IMG/VR virus record: IMGVR_UViG_2582580984_000004
Length of the DNA: 7,298 nt
Reading direction: 5' to 3' (one strand)
Source of the DNA: a virus
Lineage: Duplodnaviria > Heunggongvirae > Uroviricota > Caudoviricetes
The notes beneath the pieces are model-generated. The model was not told the origin of the DNA, made no database searches, and was given only the letters and a program-made list of their open reading frames with translations. The position numbers and the translations under genes were made by a program. Of this stretch, positions 1 to 7,298 are shown in pieces. Numbering within the stretch: position 1 is the stretch's first letter; every line of letters starts with the position of its first letter.

Positions 1-1
1 G

Positions 2-340
2 GCGTCTCCAGTAGAGTGGCTGACGGATAATGGTTCATGCTACCGGGCTAATGAAACACGGCAGTTTGCCCGGATGTTGGGGCTTGAACCGAAGAACACG
101 GCGGTGCGGAGTCCGGAGAGTAACGGCATAGCAGAGAGCTTCGTGAAAACGATAAAGCGTGACTACATCAGTATCATGCCTAAACCAGACGGGTTAACGG
201 CAGCAAAGAACCTTGCAGAGGCGTTCGAGCATTATAACGAATGGCATCCGCATAGTGCACTGGGTTATCGCTCGCCACGGGAATATCTGCGGCAGCAGGC
301 CAGTAATGGGTTAAGTGATAACAGGTGTCTGGAAATATAG
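2..340 (+). CDS. insD: IS2 transposase OrfB (InsD), C-terminal part; 5' end lies outside the window
   Basis: The frame is open from position 2 ([35 protein letters not shown]...) with no stop until TAG at 338-340. The ORF track shows only 74-340 because it starts at the first Met. The DDE-integrase C-terminal signature HPHSALGY is present. Confidence 0.9.
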
Positions 341-351
341 GGGCAAATCCA
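311..351. repeat. IS2 right terminal inverted repeat
   Basis: Terminal ~41 bp ending ...ggggcaaatcca at 351; base composition drops abruptly to AT-rich immediately after 351. Confidence 0.75.
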
Positions 352-574
352 GAGTATGACCAATGCTAATTAGTTCAATATTTCCGTTTATGATTGGGCT
401 AATGCATTTTTTTACAGCCCCTAAGTCATTGCAATATTTAGAGATCACTTCTATGAGTGATGGTGTCGTAATGGATAATTTGAATTGATCTATAGGGGAG
501 TTAATTATTTTTTGGTTTGTCGACAGACCAACTAGTGAGTAAAGAATATTTGTATCAATTATCATCCTGCTCAT
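352..574 (-). pseudogene. AT-rich gene fragment truncated by IS2; N-terminal 74 codons of a putative PIN-domain (VapC-like) protein
   Basis: ATG at 574-572 is preceded by AAAGGAG with ~7 nt spacing. Translation MSRMIIDTNILYSLVG...TTPSLIEVISKY has the PIN-like N-terminal IDTN motif (Asp7) and a Glu at ~42 in an S/T-x-L-x-E-hydrophobic context. The frame continues without a stop across the IS2 junction at 351 and ends inside the IS2 repeat at 311, so the last ~13 residues are IS-encoded. Low GC (~30%) versus ~50% elsewhere. Confidence 0.45.
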
Positions 575-773
575 ATAAATGCTCCTTTTTGAACGGTTGA
601 TTATTGTTATATCACATATCAATGCGCATTAGCATAGTGATTGTATTGTAACGTCCGCTTCTGGCACAAAGCGGACAACCACGCCAGATCTACCCTGTGC
701 CATGAAAAATGAGAATGTCAATTCACTCCTGAACTAATGCTTTTTAATCTAGTAACGTCTAAAATACCTAACA

Positions 774-1175
774 TTATCCCTGATAAAATGCCAGTATGCG
801 CTGCATAACTTCACTCATCCGGCACTCGCGACAGATTATGTTTAGGCGACTGTCGTAGCGACGTATTTCTCCATCAGGTAACGACCAGATAAGGTCCGGA
901 TCAACCACAGCTGTTTTCTTCACCTTTGCCCTCGATAGTTTTTTGCGGGCGTTTTGCCAGTCCTTACGCGCCTGTTCAGACGGGAATAACCCGTAGCCGG
1001 AGTTGTATACATCGCCACTGGCTACCAGCTCTCTGGCAAGAACGCTCATCAGATATCTAGTCGCACCTGTTTTAGCTTCCAGTTGCCGTAACGTCTCACG
1101 ACCGCTCTGGCGCACGAGTTCCACCACCTGCCCTTTAATTTTTTCCCGCTCTTCTTGTGTAAAAACTTTTGCCAC
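774..1175 (-). CDS. hypothetical protein, 133 aa, last gene of the minus-strand replication operon
   Basis: ORF-track entry; GTG start at 1175-1173 preceded by AAGGGGGA; 40-bp gap from the upstream initiator gene; no family recognised from sequence. Confidence 0.55.
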   Translation of the reverse strand: MAKVFTQEEREKIKGQVVELVRQSGRETLRQLEAKTGATRYLMSVLARELVASGDVYNSGYGLFPSEQARKDWQNARKKLSRAKVKKTAVVDPDLIWSLPDGEIRRYDSRLNIICRECRMSEVMQRILAFYQG

Positions 1176-1215
1176 AAGTCCCCCTTAAAATTACCTCATG
1201 ACCTGAAATCAAAAC

Positions 1216-2181
1216 TTATCCTCTGAAACCAGGCGGAATTTCTGTATCCGGTTCAGAAATATGATTCATACAACGCTGTACAGGTGAACGTCCCAGGCGG
1301 ATGACCAGTTCGTCCCATTTTTCGCGGAGTTTTGACGGGCTCATGATGTTTTTTACCCAGAATTGATCTCGCTGTACCCGACCAAACATTTCGCAAATTT
1401 GTCTGTGGCTTCTGCCATCCAGCATCCGCATTGTGCGCACGTCATTGGCCCAGGCTGTCCAGTTAGGCTCTTTTGGTCGCATGATCTCTCCATCGTCGCT
1501 GGCAGCCTGTTCGTAAAGGTTCACGATCCGCCCCCAAATCCACTGCGCACACGCCAAATCCTCCCTGCTACCCCACTGGCGTTTTTTCGCACTAAACACA
1601 ACCGCGTCGGGGTTCCGGGTTAAAAAATCCTGTTCAGCGGTCTGCGGGTCCGGTTGCGAAGCTTCCGGACGAAAAGTGTTTTTATTCTCTGTAGTAATCT
1701 CTGTTGTATTCTCTGTAAGATCATCAGGCCATTTTGACCCGATGACATTGGGTCGTTTTGAACCAATGGAGCGTTTCATTTTGACCTCTTCCATCGTGTC
1801 ATTTTGACCTGATGGAGCGGCGCATTTTAAACCGATGGATTCGCTCAATTTGCCACCATCTAAAAGCTCGCTCCCGTAGTTGATCGTGTAGAAATTGGTC
1901 ATATCGCGCTTTGATTTATTGAGCTTTTCACAACGCAAAAGCCCCAGCGTTTTCAGACTTGCAAACGCGCGCTTTAACGTTGACTCTGACCAGAATGGGA
2001 ACTGTTCCAGCCATTGTTCCGTTGTGTTGTAAATCCAGCGAACACCATCACATTCCATGCCGGAATTGGTATCTCTCAACCAGTAATGCAACTGCTGCAA
2101 CACAATGGCTTCATTTAAGCCAATCTTCATCGCAAGCTGTGTGTTTATAACCAGTGGGCGTTCAGCAAAAAGAAGGCTCAT
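1216..2181 (-). CDS. phage replication initiator (lambda O-like replisome organizer), 321 aa from ATG at 2181
   Basis: N-terminal winged-helix-like region (LNEAIVLQQLHYWL...IYNTTEQWLEQFPFWSESTLKRAFASLKTLGLL) typical of phage replisome organizers. The middle of the gene carries tandem iterons, as the lambda O gene carries ori-lambda. The ORF track starts at a TTG at 2235; the ATG at 2181 with a GGATGGAA upstream is the more plausible start. Confidence 0.7.
   Translation of the reverse strand: MSLLFAERPLVINTQLAMKIGLNEAIVLQQLHYWLRDTNSGMECDGVRWIYNTTEQWLEQFPFWSESTLKRAFASLKTLGLLRCEKLNKSKRDMTNFYTINYGSELLDGGKLSESIGLKCAAPSGQNDTMEEVKMKRSIGSKRPNVIGSKWPDDLTENTTEITTENKNTFRPEASQPDPQTAEQDFLTRNPDAVVFSAKKRQWGSREDLACAQWIWGRIVNLYEQAASDDGEIMRPKEPNWTAWANDVRTMRMLDGRSHRQICEMFGRVQRDQFWVKNIMSPSKLREKWDELVIRLGRSPVQRCMNHISEPDTEIPPGFRG
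1729..1842. repeat. five tandem ~22-bp iterons (consensus tcATTTTGACCnGATGGagcg) inside the initiator gene; putative prophage ori
   Basis: Repeat copies begin near 1729, 1754, 1776, 1799 and 1821; the third copy carries CCATC in place of GATGG. Adjacent at 1686-1721 are three 12-bp repeats (TCTCTGT-nnnnn) in an AT-richer stretch. Confidence 0.65.
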
Positions 2182-2683
2182 AATTCCATCCAGCTTTTTG
2201 TTGGTATTGCTGTCGATACGCAAGTTTGAAAGCAATTGCTTTTTCTATAAGTTCGTCAGTTTCACGATCCACTACGGCAGGATCAGCAAAAAGCAGTCCG
2301 GACTCCACCACATCGCCATATTCTTTGTTTAACCCGGCGATCATGTACGTGATGCTTTTTCCGTCACTAATTTCACGATACAACCTGAAATCATTAATCC
2401 GGATAGCCTCCATAATTGCAGGCACTAGCGCCGTGAACTTTTCACGCTTATCCCTAGTGTCGATAGCCTTCCAGCGTTCGAATATCTTCACTCGATTAAC
2501 GCCAAGCGCTCGCTGATCAACCGCGCCACCTTCATCTGTGACACGCTGAACATCGATGTTCGGGCGCTCTTTCAAAGCCCAGAATGCTTCAGTGATTAAT
2601 ATCGTCGCCTGCTCCTGTGTCATTCCTGGTCGACATATCCAGGCATCCAGAGCCTCACGAGCCTGTTCAGGAGTGATTTTCAT
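2162..2683 (-). CDS. hypothetical protein, 173 aa, between the Cro-like gene and the replication initiator (the position occupied by YdaT/CII-type genes in related prophages)
   Basis: ORF-track entry with ATG at 2683-2681; overlaps the end of the upstream gene by 17 nt and the start of the initiator by 20 nt, a compact operon layout; no family recognised from sequence. Confidence 0.55.
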   Translation of the reverse strand: MKITPEQAREALDAWICRPGMTQEQATILITEAFWALKERPNIDVQRVTDEGGAVDQRALGVNRVKIFERWKAIDTRDKREKFTALVPAIMEAIRINDFRLYREISDGKSITYMIAGLNKEYGDVVESGLLFADPAVVDRETDELIEKAIAFKLAYRQQYQQKAGWNYEPSFC

Positions 2684-2894
2684 TGTTCAACCGCCCCGCC
2701 CGCTTCGTCTTACGATATTCGTCATAAACCTTGGGATCATACAGAAGCTCGCCGCCAGATGCCTCCTGTAGACGCATCGCGCGACCTTCAGGAACCAGCT
2801 CTTGCCATTGAGAAACAGCAGATGGGTCAACGCCAGCAGCTTTCGCTACTTTGGCTTTCGTACCGTAAAAATTAATTACGTCTGATTTAAACAT
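2667..2894 (-). CDS. dicC: Cro-type small DNA-binding regulator (DicC/YdaS-like), 75 aa
   Basis: ATG at 2894-2892 preceded by a strong SD (GGAGGT, ~4 nt spacing). Divergent from the DicA-like repressor across a ~77-bp operator region. The ORF-track start at 2921 is a TTG extension and lacks an SD. The symbol is assigned from position and size, not from a confirmed sequence match. Confidence 0.7.
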   Translation of the reverse strand: MFKSDVINFYGTKAKVAKAAGVDPSAVSQWQELVPEGRAMRLQEASGGELLYDPKVYDEYRKTKRAGRLNNENHS

Positions 2895-2971
2895 CGCACC
2901 TCCAATATTGAGTTTTCTCAATGCTAATCACTCAAGGAATCTCAAGTCAAGGGTTATTAAGATATCTAAAT
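2895..2971. promoter_or_regulatory. divergent control region between the dicC-like and dicA-like genes, with operator-like repeats
   Basis: Inverted-repeat operator ATTGAG-tttt-CTCAAT at 2907-2922; CTCAAG direct repeats at 2931-2936 and 2941-2946, plus TCAAGG at 2947-2952; candidate -35 TTGACT (minus strand, 2950-2945) for the leftward promoter. Confidence 0.55.
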
Positions 2972-3379
2972 ATGAACGAGAAAACTTTAGGTCAACGCAT
3001 TAGAGAAAGACGTAAGCAGGTAGGCTTAAGTCAAAACGGTTTAAGCAAAGCTGCTGGCGTATCTGGCTCATCAATTTCATTATGGGAAAGTGACCATACA
3101 GCCCCGCGCGGGCAAAATTTGCATCGCCTCGCCGAGGTATTGCAATGTTCACCAACCTGGATACTGTTTGGCGACGAGGACAAAACACCAGCTCCCCCTG
3201 TTTCACTCGATAGTGCCTTAGACTTATCGGAAGATGAGTTAGAGATGCTGCGTTTGTATCGCGCACTTCCTAAATCAGAGCAACAAGCACAACTCAGCGA
3301 ACTCCGCGCCCGCGTTGAGAATTTTAATCGCCTGTTCACCGAGCTATTAGAGGCTCGCAAACGCAACAAGCATCAATAA
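2972..3379 (+). CDS. dicA: DicA-like HTH (XRE-family) prophage repressor, 135 aa
   Basis: Translation MNEKTLGQRIRERRKQVGLSQNGLSKAAGVSGSSISLWESD... has a classical XRE helix-turn-helix. It sits immediately upstream of a ydfA-dicF-dicB-ydfD array and divergent from a Cro-like gene. The ORF-track start at 2921 would leave no intergenic space, so the ATG at 2972 is preferred; no obvious SD precedes it. Confidence 0.8.
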   Translation: MNEKTLGQRIRERRKQVGLSQNGLSKAAGVSGSSISLWESDHTAPRGQNLHRLAEVLQCSPTWILFGDEDKTPAPPVSLDSALDLSEDELEMLRLYRALPKSEQQAQLSELRARVENFNRLFTELLEARKRNKHQ

Positions 3380-3417
3380 TCATCCCTTCACAAAATTTTA
3401 AAGCCTTACATTTCAAT

Positions 3418-3442
3418 GTATTGGCTTTATCTTGCGCCAATA
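3418..3442 (+). terminator. possible weak intrinsic terminator or attenuator hairpin downstream of the dicA-like gene
   Basis: Perfect 8-bp stem GTATTGGC/GCCAATAC with a 9-nt loop, followed by ttgagttttctc (U-rich but interrupted); it abuts operator copy O2. Confidence 0.3.
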
Positions 3443-3443
3443 C

Positions 3444-3495
3444 TTGAGTTTTCTCATCAAAAAACCTTGACGAAAAATAATGAGAAAACTAAATT
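3444..3495 (+). promoter_or_regulatory. putative repressor-controlled promoter of the dicB-type operon, flanked by two operator copies
   Basis: -35 TTGACG at 3467-3472, 17-bp spacer, -10 TAAATT at 3490-3495. Operator copy TTGAGTTTTCTCAT at 3444-3457 and an inverted copy aaTGAGAAAACTaaat at 3479-3494, both matching the 2907-2922 operator. Confidence 0.5.
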
Positions 3496-3571
3496 ACTTC
3501 CATCAAGACACCGCACGGTGTTCTCAGCAAACAGTTCCGCTACCCCGGCGTTAAGGGGAAATGAGGTCAGC

Positions 3572-3724
3572 ATGGATACTATCGATCTTGGCAACAGCGA
3601 ATCTCTGGTATGTGGCGTGTTCCCCAACCAGGACGGTACGTTCACCGCGATGACATATACCAAAAGCAAAACGTTTAAAACCGAATCTGGCGCGCGTTGC
3701 TGGTTAGCCAGAAACACTGACTGA
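3572..3724 (+). CDS. ydfA: small protein, 50 aa, YdfA-like (first gene of the dicB-type operon)
   Basis: ATG at 3572 preceded by GAGG with ~5 nt spacing; size and position match ydfA of the Qin dicB operon. The ORF-track start at 3416 is an unsupported upstream extension. Confidence 0.6.
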   Translation: MDTIDLGNSESLVCGVFPNQDGTFTAMTYTKSKTFKTESGARCWLARNTD

Positions 3725-3735
3725 TGAGGCTGACG

Positions 3736-4101
3736 ATGGAATTTAAAGATTTACCGTCTGATGTACAGAAAACAGCAGCTCATACATTGCATTCTGTGCT
3801 GCGAGAAATCGGGAAAGATATTGCAAGCGAGCCAGCAAAAGATCTGGCCCGGAAAATCAAGACCGCTTTCGTTGAGCTTTATAATGTTGGCACTGACTCT
3901 GAAACTGTCGAGACCAAGACCGTAAGTTCACCAATATTCTCACTTGAGCCAGGCGTATTATCAGGTGAAATATGCACCGAGATTTCCAGCGAACTGCTTC
4001 CGGTAATACGAGAAGCAATTTGCCGTCGCGGTTTGGATGGAAGTTACGATCATGACGTCCTGCAAGTTCTCAGGACAATGGTGACTTCACTGGGGATTTG
4101 A
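3736..4101 (+). CDS. hypothetical protein, 121 aa (the position of ydfB/ydfC in the Qin operon)
   Basis: ATG at 3736 preceded by GAGG (3726-3729, 6 nt spacing); an alternative ATG at 3724 overlaps the upstream stop (TGATG). Acidic protein; no family recognised. Confidence 0.6.
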   Translation: MEFKDLPSDVQKTAAHTLHSVLREIGKDIASEPAKDLARKIKTAFVELYNVGTDSETVETKTVSSPIFSLEPGVLSGEICTEISSELLPVIREAICRRGLDGSYDHDVLQVLRTMVTSLGI

Positions 4102-4270
4102 TCCCTGCGTCCTCTAACCTTTTGATATAGCGGTCCTCCAAGAAGCGGTAAATTTTGTCGAAATCATCTTTCCCCTCTGGTTTATTCAGAGGATTACAGG
4201 ACCCGTAAGTAGCGGCATACATTTCAACCGTTTTATCAAAAATATAAGAGACAAATTCTTCTTTAGTCAT
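4070..4270 (-). CDS. hypothetical small protein, 66 aa, convergent with and overlapping the 3' end of the 3736-4101 gene
   Basis: ATG at 4270-4268 preceded by AAGAAGGAAAT (SD-like, ~8 nt spacing). Translation MTKEEFVSYIFDKTVEMYAATYGSCNPLNKPEGKDDFDKIYRFLEDRYIKRLEDAGIKSPVKSPLS has a globular-protein-like composition. The plus strand has no ORF across 4102-4270. Confidence 0.45.
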   Translation of the reverse strand: MTKEEFVSYIFDKTVEMYAATYGSCNPLNKPEGKDDFDKIYRFLEDRYIKRLEDAGIKSPVKSPLS

Positions 4271-4545
4271 ATAGATTTCCTTCTTGGTTATTCGGGATAA
4301 GAAGGATACCACCTCGCCTGACGTGGTTAAAAGCAGGCATACAACACGAAAGCGCACGGCGAAGTTCGTCTCACTGTACGGTGTCGTTAAATTTAATTCG
4401 ACCGTGCGCTTCCGGTTGTGGCAACCCGCGAAATGGCGCGGCGGTAAGTATGGCGGGGTTATTCCTTCCCCGTTGAGGACACCGAGTTGTCAGGTTGACC
4501 ATACGCTTAAGTGACAACCCCGCTGCAACGCCCTCTGTTATCAAT

Positions 4546-4603
4546 TTTCTGGTGACGTTTGGCGGTATCAGTTTTACTCCGTGACTGCTCTGCCGCCCTT
4601 TTT
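4546..4603 (+). ncRNA. dicF: DicF small regulatory RNA (antisense regulator of ftsZ), about 53 nt plus U-tail
   Basis: Sequence tttctggtgacgtttggcggtatcagttttactccgtgactgctctgccgccc-ttttt matches DicF as I recall it; it lies just upstream of dicB as in Qin and ends in a GC-stem plus U-run terminator. Ends are approximate. Confidence 0.75.
4561..4603 (+). terminator. DicF 3' intrinsic terminator
   Basis: GGCGG (4561-4565) pairs with CCGCC (4593-4597), with an inner CAGT/ACTG pairing, followed by cTTTTT (4598-4603). Confidence 0.65.
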
Positions 4604-4772
4604 AAAGTGAATTTTGTGATGCGGTGAATGCGGCTGAGCGCACGCGGAACAGTTAAAACCAAAAACAGTGTTATGGGTGGATTCTCTGTATCCGGCGTTA
4701 ATTGTTAACTGGTTAACGTCACCTGGAGGCACCAGGCACCGCATCACAAAATTCATTGTTGAGGACGCGATA

Positions 4773-4961
4773 ATGGAAACGTTATTACCAAACGTTAATA
4801 CGTCTGAAGGTTGTTTTGAAATTGGTGTCACTATCAGTAACCCTGTATTTACTGAAGATGCCATTAACAAGAGAAAACACGAACGGAAGCTATTAAATAA
4901 AATATGCATTCTTTCAATGTTGGCCCGTTTACGTCCGATACAAAAAGGATGCTGGCAATGA
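4773..4961 (+). CDS. dicB: DicB cell-division inhibitor (MinC-dependent), 62 aa
   Basis: ATG at 4773 preceded by GAGGA (4761-4765, 7 nt spacing). Translation METLLPNVNTSEGCFEIGVTISNPVFTEDAINKRKHERKLLNKICILSMLARLRPIQKGCWQ matches DicB in length and, as far as I recall, in sequence. The ORF-track start at 4668 is an upstream extension. Confidence 0.8.
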   Translation: METLLPNVNTSEGCFEIGVTISNPVFTEDAINKRKHERKLLNKICILSMLARLRPIQKGCWQ

Positions 4962-5149
4962 ATACAGCATTTGCACTTGTTCTGACAGTTTTTCTTGTTT
5001 CCGGAGAGCCAGTTGATATTGCAGTCAGTGTTCACAGGACAATGCAGGAGTGTGTGACTGCAGCAACCGAACAGAAAATTCCCGGTAACTGTTACCCGGT
5101 CGATAAAGTTATTCACCAGGATAATAACGAAATCCCGGCAGGTCTTTAA
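4958..5149 (+). CDS. ydfD: YdfD-like small membrane protein, 63 aa
   Basis: ATG at 4958-4960 overlaps the dicB stop (ATGA, translational coupling); hydrophobic N-terminus MNTAFALVLTVFLVSG; size and position match ydfD of Qin. Confidence 0.7.
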   Translation: MNTAFALVLTVFLVSGEPVDIAVSVHRTMQECVTAATEQKIPGNCYPVDKVIHQDNNEIPAGL

Positions 5150-5241
5150 AACAGTTCCGTAATAAACATCCGATTTCATTCTTATATGCCAGCAATGGCA
5201 GGGATTTGTTCACCCTTAAATCTGTAATGAGGTAAAACAAA

Positions 5242-7298
5242 ATGAGTAAAGTCTTTATTTGCGCCGCCATTCCGGACGAACAGGCAATAAAGGAAGAAGG
5301 TGCCGTCGCTGTAGCCACTGCCATTGAAGCCGGTGATGAACGTCGCGCCCGCGCAAAATTTCACTGGCAATTCCTGGAGCATTATCCGGCTGCTCAGGAC
5401 TGCGCTTATAAATTTCTTGTCTGCGAGGATAAACCCGGTATACCCCGCCCTGCCCTCGATTCCTGGGATGCTGAATATATGCAGGAAAACCGCTGGGATG
5501 AGGCGTCTGCTTCCTTTGTCCCGGTCGAGACTGAATCCGATCCGATGAACGTCACTTTTGACAACCTAGCCCCTGAAGTACAGAACGCTGTCATGGTTAA
5601 GTTCGACACATGTGAAAACATCACCGTTGATATGGTTATTAGCGCACAGGAATTGTTGCAGGAAGACATGGCAACATTCGACGGACATATCGTTGAAGCG
5701 TTGATGAAAATGCCAGAAGTTAACGCCATGTATCCGGAGCTTAAGTTGCACGCCATTGGGTGGGTTAAGCATAAATGTAAGCCTGGTGCCAAATGGCCCG
5801 AAATTCAGGCAGAGATGCGCATCTGGAAAAAACGTCGCGAAGGTGAACGCAAGGAAGCCGGAAAATACACGTCTGTTGTTGATCTCGCCCGCGCCAGAGC
5901 CAATCAACAGCACACTGAAAATTCAACAGGAAAAATCAACCCGGTCATTGCTGCCATTCATCGCGAATACAAGCAGACATGGAAAACACTGGATGACGAA
6001 CTGGCCTACGCTCTCTGGCCTGGTGATGTGGATGCCGGAAACATTGACGGCAGCATCCATCGCTGGGCAAAAAATGAAGTTATCGACAACGACCGCGAAG
6101 ACTGGAAGCGTATCTCGGCATCAATGCGCAAACAGCCTGATGCCCTTCGCTACGACCGCCAGACTATTTTTGGCCTTGTCCGTGAACGTCCGATCGACAT
6201 TCACAAAGACCCTGTGGCACTGAACAAATACATTACTGAATACCTGACTACAAAGGGCGTGTTTGAAGATGAAGGAACAAATCAGAGCGCAACTGATACT
6301 CTCTCGTCGCCAGTACCAGAAACTGATGCAGTGGAAACGGCAATTCCGGGCAACGAAAAAACCGAATGCAAAGTGGAAGTCGAACCATCTGTAGAGCGTG
6401 AGGGGCCGTTCTACTTCCTCTTCACCGACAAGGATGGCGAAAAATACGGTCGCGCAAACAAACTTTCTGGTCTGGAAAAAGCACTAGCCTTGGGAGCTAC
6501 GGAAATCACAAAAGAGGAATACTTCGCACGTAAAAACGGCACGTACTCAGGTTCACAACAAAATACTGGTGCATCTGACACGACCGCACAACCAGAGCCG
6601 GTAAAAGTTACCGCTGACGAAGTAAACAAAATTATGCAGGCAGCCAATATCAGCCAGCCTGACGCCGATAAGTTGCTTGCTGCCTCTCGCGGAGAATTTG
6701 TTGCAGGGATTAGCGACCCGAATGATCCGAAATGGGTAAAGGGGATTGAAACCCGCGATTCTGTAAACCAGAACCAGCAAGAAACGGAACAGAACGACCA
6801 GAAAGCGGAACAAAACAGCCCAAATACGCAACAAAACGAGCCAGAAACGAAACAACCTGAGCCAGTAGCGCAACAGGAACCGGAAAAAGTCTGCACCGCC
6901 TGCGGTCAAAGCGGTGGCGGCAACTGCCCTGATTGTGGCGCGGTGATGGGTGACGCAACATACCAGGAAACATTCGATGAAGAGAATCAGGTTGAAGTTC
7001 AGGAAAATGATCCGAAGGAAATGGAAGGCGCTGAACATCCACACAAGGAGAATGCTGGTAGCGCTCAGGATCACGCCAGCGATAGTGAAACTGGCGAGAC
7101 GGCAGATCCCTTAATTACGATGAACGGTCATCACGTTATCACATCCACCAGCAGGACGTGTGACCATCTAATGATCGACCTTGAAACCATGGGAAAAAAT
7201 CCTGATGCCCCGATTATCTCAATAGGTGCAATATTTTTCGATCCGCAAACCGGAGATATGGGACCGGAATTTAGTAAGACTATCGATCATACCCCGCC
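5242..7298 (+). CDS. large RecE-like / YdfE-like prophage recombination-exonuclease protein, N-terminal 685 codons (3' end outside window)
   Basis: ATG at 5242 preceded by GAGGT (5228-5232); the frame is open to the window end. Contains a segment [31 protein letters not shown] that I associate with RecE-family N-terminal regions, a Q/E/N-rich low-complexity linker, a CxxC-x8-CxxC zinc ribbon (6883-6927), and at the end [10 protein letters not shown]...[10 protein letters not shown], resembling exonuclease motif I of DnaQ/DEDD 3'-5' exonucleases. Not in the ORF track because no stop occurs within the window. Confidence 0.8.
   Translation, partial: [685 protein letters not shown]

Follow-up and report, generated by a model that had tools for sequence, protein, structure and literature searches.

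What kind of nuclease is encoded by a long prophage gene that resembles RecE over part of its length but appears to end in a domain of another family? The DNA in question, hereafter the window, is a stretch of 7,298 nucleotides from IMG/VR virus record IMGVR_UViG_2582580984_000004 (Caudoviricetes), and the gene is the open reading frame (ORF) that opens at ATG 5242 on the plus strand. An in-frame stop at 5233 precedes this start codon and a GAGG lies 8 nucleotides upstream of it; from there 685 codons run without a stop to position 7298, the span that an earlier note on this DNA had given for the ORF. That note, made from the letters alone, had further proposed that the ORF starts like RecE and turns, at the very edge of the window, into a DEDD-type 3'-5' exonuclease. 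We found that the protein is a three-part mosaic with a YdfE-type N terminus, a RecE-type middle region, and, at the C terminus, a DEDDh domain that belongs to the Rv2179c/DexA family. The parts of the gene lie as follows.

5242–7298, plus strand: the prophage "exonuclease" gene, of which 685 codons out of 823 (the 5' 83%) are present; the frame is open at the window end.
5242–6009, plus strand: YdfE-type N-terminal region, residues 1–256; 98% identity to K-12 YdfE.
6025–7119, plus strand: RecE-like middle region, residues 262–626; BLASTP match to RecE 278–592, E = 3e-63.
6667–6747, plus strand: conserved motif in two adjoining segments (6667–6702 and 6706–6747), common to RecE and to relatives with other C-terminal domains.
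6748–6891, plus strand: Q/E/N-rich low-complexity linker, recognized by composition and predicted to be disordered.
6892–6939, plus strand: putative C4 zinc ribbon, C551-x2-C554-x7-C562-x2-C565, found also in RecE.
6940–7164, plus strand: acidic linker from the zinc ribbon to the nuclease domain; RecE similarity extends to about residue 626 (nucleotide 7119).
7165–7288, plus strand: first 41 residues of the DEDDh (Rv2179c/DexA-like) domain, a predicted 3'-5' exonuclease whose Exo I residues are D646 and E648; Pfam PF16473.
7289–7298, plus strand: ten bases that match no relative; they may mark a breakpoint, an insertion, or the edge of an assembly.

The nuclease domain is taken first. The 42 domain residues inside the window match Pfam PF16473 over profile positions 2–43 (E = 1e-14, 55 bits against a cutoff of 27); judged by this score, the likeness to an Exo I motif, which the earlier note had picked out from the letters, is far above chance. 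The Exo I stretch subdivides into 7165–7194, which holds D646 and E648, a KNPDAP segment at 7195–7212, and a following segment at 7213–7242. The rest of the domain was read from full-length homologs. An 823-codon coding sequence in strain MSB1_8B is 99.4% identical in nucleotides over window positions 5242–7288, and the full-length homologs (823 residues) are 98–99% identical over the 682 comparable residues. In the 823-residue homolog, PF16473 covers residues 642–813 (E = 3e-63, 213 bits against a cutoff of 27; profile positions 2–177 of 177) and is accompanied by a weak RNase_T match, while the Pfam scan of the same protein found no PD-(D/E)XK domain. PHROG 2082 ("exonuclease", 823 positions) matches this homolog end to end. 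It represents the same E. coli prophage protein, encoded in an identical arrangement of genes (dicB, ydfD, exonuclease, xis, int); of its codons the window has the first 685 only, the last three of them divergent. The catalytic set in the full-length homologs consists of D646/E648, the Exo II residue D746 (within GANFD), and the Exo III residues H796-x4-D801 (HNALDD). In an alignment with 39 stand-alone homologs (38–50% identity), D646 and E648 are invariant, and D746, H796, and D801 are invariant or at least 90% conserved; the latter three lie beyond the window and are read from the full-length homologs only, not from the window's own copy. The homologs thus bear out the proposal that a DEDD-type domain stands in place of the PD-(D/E)XK core of RecE, for which the earlier note had one motif and had advised a search for Exo II and Exo III.

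Structural comparison points to the same family. A PDB sequence search with the 823-residue homolog returned a sole match, the 227-residue exodeoxyribonuclease T4 DexA (8KEL/8KEN); its structure was solved in a study that identifies DexA and the E. coli protein EcD as 3'-5' DNA exonucleases (PMC12153337, NAR 2025). We obtained two AlphaFold models. The first, a full-length model based on 21 near-identical sequences, had a mean predicted local distance difference test (pLDDT) score of 36.8. The second, for which the alignment was deepened with 119 diverse stand-alone homologs, placed residues 640–820 at a pLDDT of about 90–96, with residues 1–640 mostly below 50 and the YdfE-type region at low confidence. 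A Foldseek search of the modelled DEDDh domain against the PDB put T4 DexA (8KEL) at the top (E = 4e-12, TM-target 0.64–0.73), followed by RNase T, the oligoribonucleases (Orn), and REXO2. As modelled, the C-terminal domain has an RNase H-like DEDD fold. DexA is the closest solved structure to this domain by both sequence and fold, and the DEDDh residues of the two align, but DexA is a stand-alone protein of 227 residues with extra loops and about 23% identity, it carries W152 where the present protein has Tyr766, and its roles (scavenging of host DNA and homing of introns) are those of a virulent phage. We regard the identity of the protein and the fold of its DEDDh domain as nearly certain.

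How much of the protein, then, is RecE? In a BLASTP comparison with K-12 RecE, only residues 262–626 align, with RecE 278–592 (E = 3e-63), and residues 1–256 show no similarity to RecE 1–277. The match is almost identical from the motif at 6667 across the zinc ribbon to ...ETADP. The NCBIfam model PRK09709 (exonuclease VIII equivalog) aligns with residues 246–626 over model positions 271–603 and scores 283 bits against a cutoff of 1269. In nucleotides, window 6666–7115 is 77% identical to K-12 recE, a level that marks the shared segment as conserved homology, not very recent exchange. K-12 RecE has two Pfam domains, Exonuc_VIII (PF06630) at residues 2–178 (E = 6e-98) and the PDDEXK-like DUF3799 at residues 615–850. 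Pfam found no match to Exonuc_VIII in the window ORF or in the full-length homolog, DUF3799/PDDEXK is absent from the full-length homolog, and no alignment extends past RecE residue 592. The apparent domain-swap boundary is the end of RecE similarity at about residue 626 (nucleotide 7119). The pairwise comparison with both K-12 proteins that the earlier note had called for therefore divides its claim of a RecE-like start: the claim stands for residues 262–626 only and fails for residues 1–256, which are YdfE.

RecE of the Rac prophage (866 residues), whose nuclease-domain structure is known, shares with the present protein the middle region (the ...KWVKGI motif, C4 zinc ribbon, and acidic linker included); its gene, too, lies upstream of xis and int at the corresponding point of the early-left operon. 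The two proteins differ at both ends and in their company: RecE has an Exonuc_VIII N terminus where we find the YdfE type, a PD-(D/E)XK nuclease where we find DEDDh, and RecT as a partner where we find none. Because the nuclease domain is DEDDh and not PD-(D/E)XK, the expected polarity is opposite to that of RecE. Within the shared region, the RecE-family segment described earlier is present at 6667–6747, and so is the Q/E/N-rich linker, at residues 501–547 (Q11, E8, and N6 among 47 residues). The cysteine motif that had been read as CxxC-x8-CxxC at 6883–6927 is a real four-cysteine ribbon, but it lies at 6892–6939 and its spacing is x7. All four cysteines are invariant across 21 homologs, Pfam DZR matches the ribbon weakly (E about 0.1), and metal binding by the ribbon may be inferred.

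The N-terminal region resolves the nature of a K-12 gene fragment. Residues 1–256 are identical to K-12 YdfE at 250 of 256 positions (98%), and K-12 ydfE, a pseudogene of the Qin prophage (L003:6079–6999), is interrupted by IS2E behind codon 256, so that K-12 lacks the RecE-like and DEDDh parts. Because the first 256 residues are 98% identical and the IS2E cut falls at exactly that point, we conclude from the comparison of sequences that K-12 ydfE is the stump of a DEDDh exonuclease gene. A literature search found no paper naming K-12 ydfE as the first part of such a gene. The YdfE-type region has no match in the Pfam library that we used; the precomputed Pfam annotation of the homologs lists PF27430, PF16473, and PF27432, of which PF27430 and PF27432 lie outside that library.

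The setting of the gene is that of a Qin/mEp460-type lambdoid E. coli prophage, where it closes the repressor-controlled early-left operon, in which a ydfA-like gene stands between the repressor gene and dicF. Three features immediately upstream belong to the same operon and lie on the same strand, as they do in the dicBF operon of K-12 Qin.

4547–4598, plus strand: dicF small RNA (Rfam DicF, 76.7 bits).
4773–4961, plus strand: dicB, from the ORF list.
4958–5149, plus strand: ydfD/DUF1482, from the ORF list.

In four loci the genes run in the order repressor, DUF1391, hypothetical, dicF, dicB, ydfD, exonuclease, xis, int. The upstream order dicF-dicB-ydfD is identical in locus L001, mEp460, K-12 Qin, and FDAARGOS_497, and xis and int follow the exonuclease gene directly in L001, mEp460, vB_EcoS-640R1, and FDAARGOS_497. 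None of the last four loci has recT, bet, or erf, genes for which the earlier note had advised a check downstream, whereas recE-recT occupies the equivalent position in the Rac prophage. Over window 650–7288 the identity to mEp460_ev081, a viable lambdoid phage, is 98.6%, and over window 352–7288 it is 98.7% to intact prophages located at rspB, the Qin site. A promoter and terminator scan between ydfD and the exonuclease gene gave counts at chance level, so that a separate transcription unit is unsupported. In mEp460, Chi sites number 7 on the top and 2 on the bottom strand, where about 0.9 would be expected on each, and one of them lies within the exonuclease gene at window position 7145 on the minus strand. 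In its early-left operon mEp460 is without an annealase or anti-RecBCD gene, and the phage fits the "no Rec module, Chi-rich" class of PMC12315714. The domain also occurs in another setting: P0275, a stand-alone DEDDh homolog of 182 residues (57% identical; 1286 member sequences), lies in a recombination module (L034–L037, 4322–6859) made up of cIII, kil, a Rad52-like annealase, SSB, a 159-residue ORF, the DEDDh exonuclease, and Abc2 (anti-RecBCD). One source names P0275 an "ATPase", which looks wrong.

The earlier note had implied that such an architecture would be rare, and this did not hold. By megablast, the gene is present in 4710 of 5426 complete E. coli genomes, where the best matches are 99.4% identical and annotated as "exonuclease" or "3'-5' exonuclease". 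DNA of the DEDDh domain is found in 4093 of the same 5426 genomes (8163 places) against 1736 (1827 places) for DNA of the RecE PD-(D/E)XK domain, and a protein search found the domain alone in 678 phage records. Homologs of 823–826 residues (e.g., WP_201525305.1 and VUF53467.1 of mEp460) bear the NCBI names "3'-5' exoribonuclease" or "exonuclease". PMC12315714 (Genome Res 2025) describes DnaQ-like 3'-5' nucleases in lambdoid Rec modules together with sporadic ones adjoining int, the latter in exactly the position of this gene; in its accessible text the fusion to a RecE/YdfE-type region is not described, and the int-adjacent genes are not treated as recombination genes. The protein is ordinary, in that it is already annotated, its domain is in Pfam, and its gene class has been noted in print, and with annotation in thousands of genomes and a presence in about three-quarters of complete E. 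coli genomes it has little weight as a discovery.

Phage records ON470612.1, PQ793805.1, KY883655.1, and others label DEDDh-domain proteins "exodeoxyribonuclease VIII". This label is wrong for the nuclease domain, the name apparently having been carried over from the RecE-like middle or by habit. The value of the analysis lies in correcting the records that name the protein in this way, in identifying K-12 ydfE, and in the observation that the RecE-type scaffold of E. coli sits more often on a 3'-5' nuclease than on RecE's own 5'-3' nuclease, which offers a handle on the role of the RecE N-terminal region.

What would such a protein do? Our favoured explanation overall, which we hold with somewhat better than even confidence, is a mosaic exonuclease of Qin/mEp460-type prophages, expressed from the early-left operon and acting as a Mg2+-dependent 3'-5' DNA exonuclease. 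In this scheme, D646, E648, D746, and D801 would hold two Mg2+ ions and H796 would serve as the general base; nucleotides would be removed singly from free 3' ends, with polarity opposite to that of RecE; and expression would be expected on prophage induction, together with DicB/DicF. DNA would be the most likely substrate, as it is for T4 DexA. We consider DNA rather than RNA the probable substrate by analogy, since the nearest relatives of known activity are DNases and the modules found as partners serve in DNA transactions. The enzyme would then trim 3' DNA ends in the replication and recombination of a phage without its own annealing protein, and the RecE-type region could act as a tether or scaffold. 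We place a recombination or DNA-end-processing role a little short of an even chance. The scaffold idea is drawn solely from domain shuffling because the N-terminal 640 residues could not be modelled.

Several observations weigh against this explanation. Residues 1–640, most of the protein, have AlphaFold scores mostly below 50. Rv2179c, which gives the family its name, is said to have been described as an exoribonuclease in a 2014 report, and the Pfam name has it so as well. PMC12315714 explicitly declines to count int-adjacent DnaQ-type genes as members of recombination modules and states that 3'-5' exonucleases usually inhibit recombination. Homology is lost at 7288, and the copy in this window may be nonfunctional. 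Finally, our literature search found no paper on the fused protein or on ydfE as an exonuclease.

Three other functions have been weighed against that of a phage DNA exonuclease. One is an anti-phage (superinfection-exclusion) nuclease of the "HREX" type, which would act like EcD by degrading the 5-hydroxymethylcytosine (5hmC) DNA of T-even phages from 3' ends while sparing host DNA; prophages often carry defence genes. EcD (HAK9828821.1), a member of the same Rv2179c/DexA-like family that is a stand-alone homolog of DexA, unlike the fused protein, digests the 5hmC DNA of T4 and protects against T4 (PMC12153337). We inferred its sequence from the published primers (MIDTET start), which lead to a 189-residue IMG/VR protein with A78, in agreement with the paper; the C terminus of this protein is one base off the EcD reverse primer, and the identification is probable. 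The 189-residue protein is 37% identical to the DEDDh domain. At the position of DexA D90, however, EcD has Ala, with loss of a tetramer contact, and the present protein Asp718, although alignments at 23–37% identity make this weak evidence. At the position of DexA W152, EcD and most homologs have Trp and the present protein Tyr766; the equivalent of DexA D169, which with W152 functions in 5hmC recognition, falls in a variable loop and is not placeable. The gene moreover belongs to the early-left operon, which is repressed, and not to a region expressed in the lysogen, PADLOC returned only a generic Cas-associated DEDDh match (E = 1.5e-5), and the same domain occurs within recombination modules, as at the P0275 locus. 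Given the operon position, and because the EcD-linked residues differ here (Asp718, Tyr766), we consider a defence role unlikely. An exoribonuclease, in line with the NCBI name, would shorten RNAs from their 3' ends, for example transcripts of phage or host or the co-transcribed DicF precursor, and we consider it quite improbable. The Pfam family is named after the Mycobacterium tuberculosis exoribonuclease Rv2179c, dicF shares the operon, and RNase T, oligoribonuclease, and REXO2 rank next in the structural comparison, but RNase T acts on DNA too. The closest solved relative, DexA, is a DNase, as is EcD (PMC12153337); the fusion partner of the domain is a module found elsewhere on RecE, a DNA exonuclease, and stand-alone homologs lie between SSB and Abc2. 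The last candidate, a canonical RecE (exonuclease VIII) working as a 5'-3' PD-(D/E)XK double-stranded DNA exonuclease with RecT, would agree with the phage records that say "exodeoxyribonuclease VIII" and with the match of the middle region to PRK09709. We rejected it on the score for that model (283 against 1269 bits, over model positions 271–603 only), the lack of Exonuc_VIII and DUF3799, the DEDDh C terminus, and the lack of recT, and we give it practically no chance.

A separate question is whether the copy in the window is intact. Homology to every relative stops at 7288, after which the last three codons read H-T-P where relatives have L-E-T; the earlier note had missed both this end of homology and the ten unmatched bases behind it. 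These terminal bases, 7289–7298 (given as cataccccgc c), have no counterpart in any relative. Past 7288 (...actatcgat), the intact gene would read ctggaaactgct, and in 3844 complete genomes a different, conserved sequence follows. No match in a complete E. coli genome extends beyond 7288, and exact junction patterns were absent from genome, metagenome, and viral contig collections. The present copy may therefore break off after 41 residues of the nuclease domain; alternatively, the ten bases may have arisen as an artefact of assembly. We assign a sizeable minority of our confidence to the former reading, in which the source genome carries a pseudogene, or a gene broken at codon 682 by insertion, deletion, or rearrangement, and would encode only Exo I of the nuclease domain. 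In its favour, the homology of all relatives ends exactly at one point where the 3844 genomes continue differently, an IS2 copy at the opposite end of the window cuts short an adjacent ORF, and in K-12 this gene (ydfE) has likewise been interrupted by IS2. On the other side, the evidence amounts to 10 bases that are unlike the IS2 end at the window left, that could have arisen in assembly or extraction, and whose junction is missing from the collections searched. At that left end, window 1–351 comprises the right end of an IS2 element, with the orfB C terminus at 74–340, and is 100% identical to the IS2 of L001. This IS2 truncates a hypothetical ORF of about 340 residues that is intact in FDAARGOS_497; its remnant lies at 311–622 on the minus strand.

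The RecE-like region also raises the question of what the RecE N-terminal part is for; this part of RecE is without known function, and full-length RecE improves linear-linear recombination (2023 review, PMC11611040). We sought relatives of the protein among 1.8 billion cluster representatives and scanned them with Pfam and PHROG. Around the same middle region, N- and C-terminal domains occur in mixed combinations (P0123, P0141, P0129, P0137, P0151, and P0154): P0123 (805 residues) joins the canonical RecE Exonuc_VIII N terminus to a DEDDh C terminus, P0141 joins a YdfE-type N terminus to PDDEXK, and further relatives join the YdfE-type N terminus to other C-terminal domains. The finding of the RecE-type region fused to a nuclease of either polarity suggests an independent, portable module. 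We therefore put forward, tentatively and with considerable doubt, that the RecE/YdfE-type N-terminal and middle regions may form a portable targeting module for interchangeable DNA-transaction effectors, namely, PD-(D/E)XK, DEDDh, and possibly a Rad52-like annealase. If the module does bring effectors to one site or partner, this would explain the first ~560 residues of RecE, and the Chi-rich lambdoid phages classed as having no Rec module would gain a previously uncounted recombination factor. In P0137, P0151, and P0154, the YdfE-type N terminus is followed by about 220 C-terminal residues with a Rad52-like signature, EAQKKSLTDAxKKALSLLGFSADVWLGLYD. This domain matches Pfam Rad52_Rad22 below threshold (E = 0.032), a PDB profile search with it gave no match, and we take the possible Rad52-like nature of this third C-terminal type as a lead only. 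The same three proteins may be equivalent to "RecE-2", the proteins lacking a nuclease domain that PMC12315714 mentions.

Farther upstream in the window, the immunity region at 2162–3379 holds a divergent pair, a YdaS/Cro-like gene (2667–2921, minus strand) and a repressor gene (2921–3379, plus strand). A YdaT-family gene overlaps downstream of the Cro-like gene, an arrangement of the Rac/Qin-type switch.

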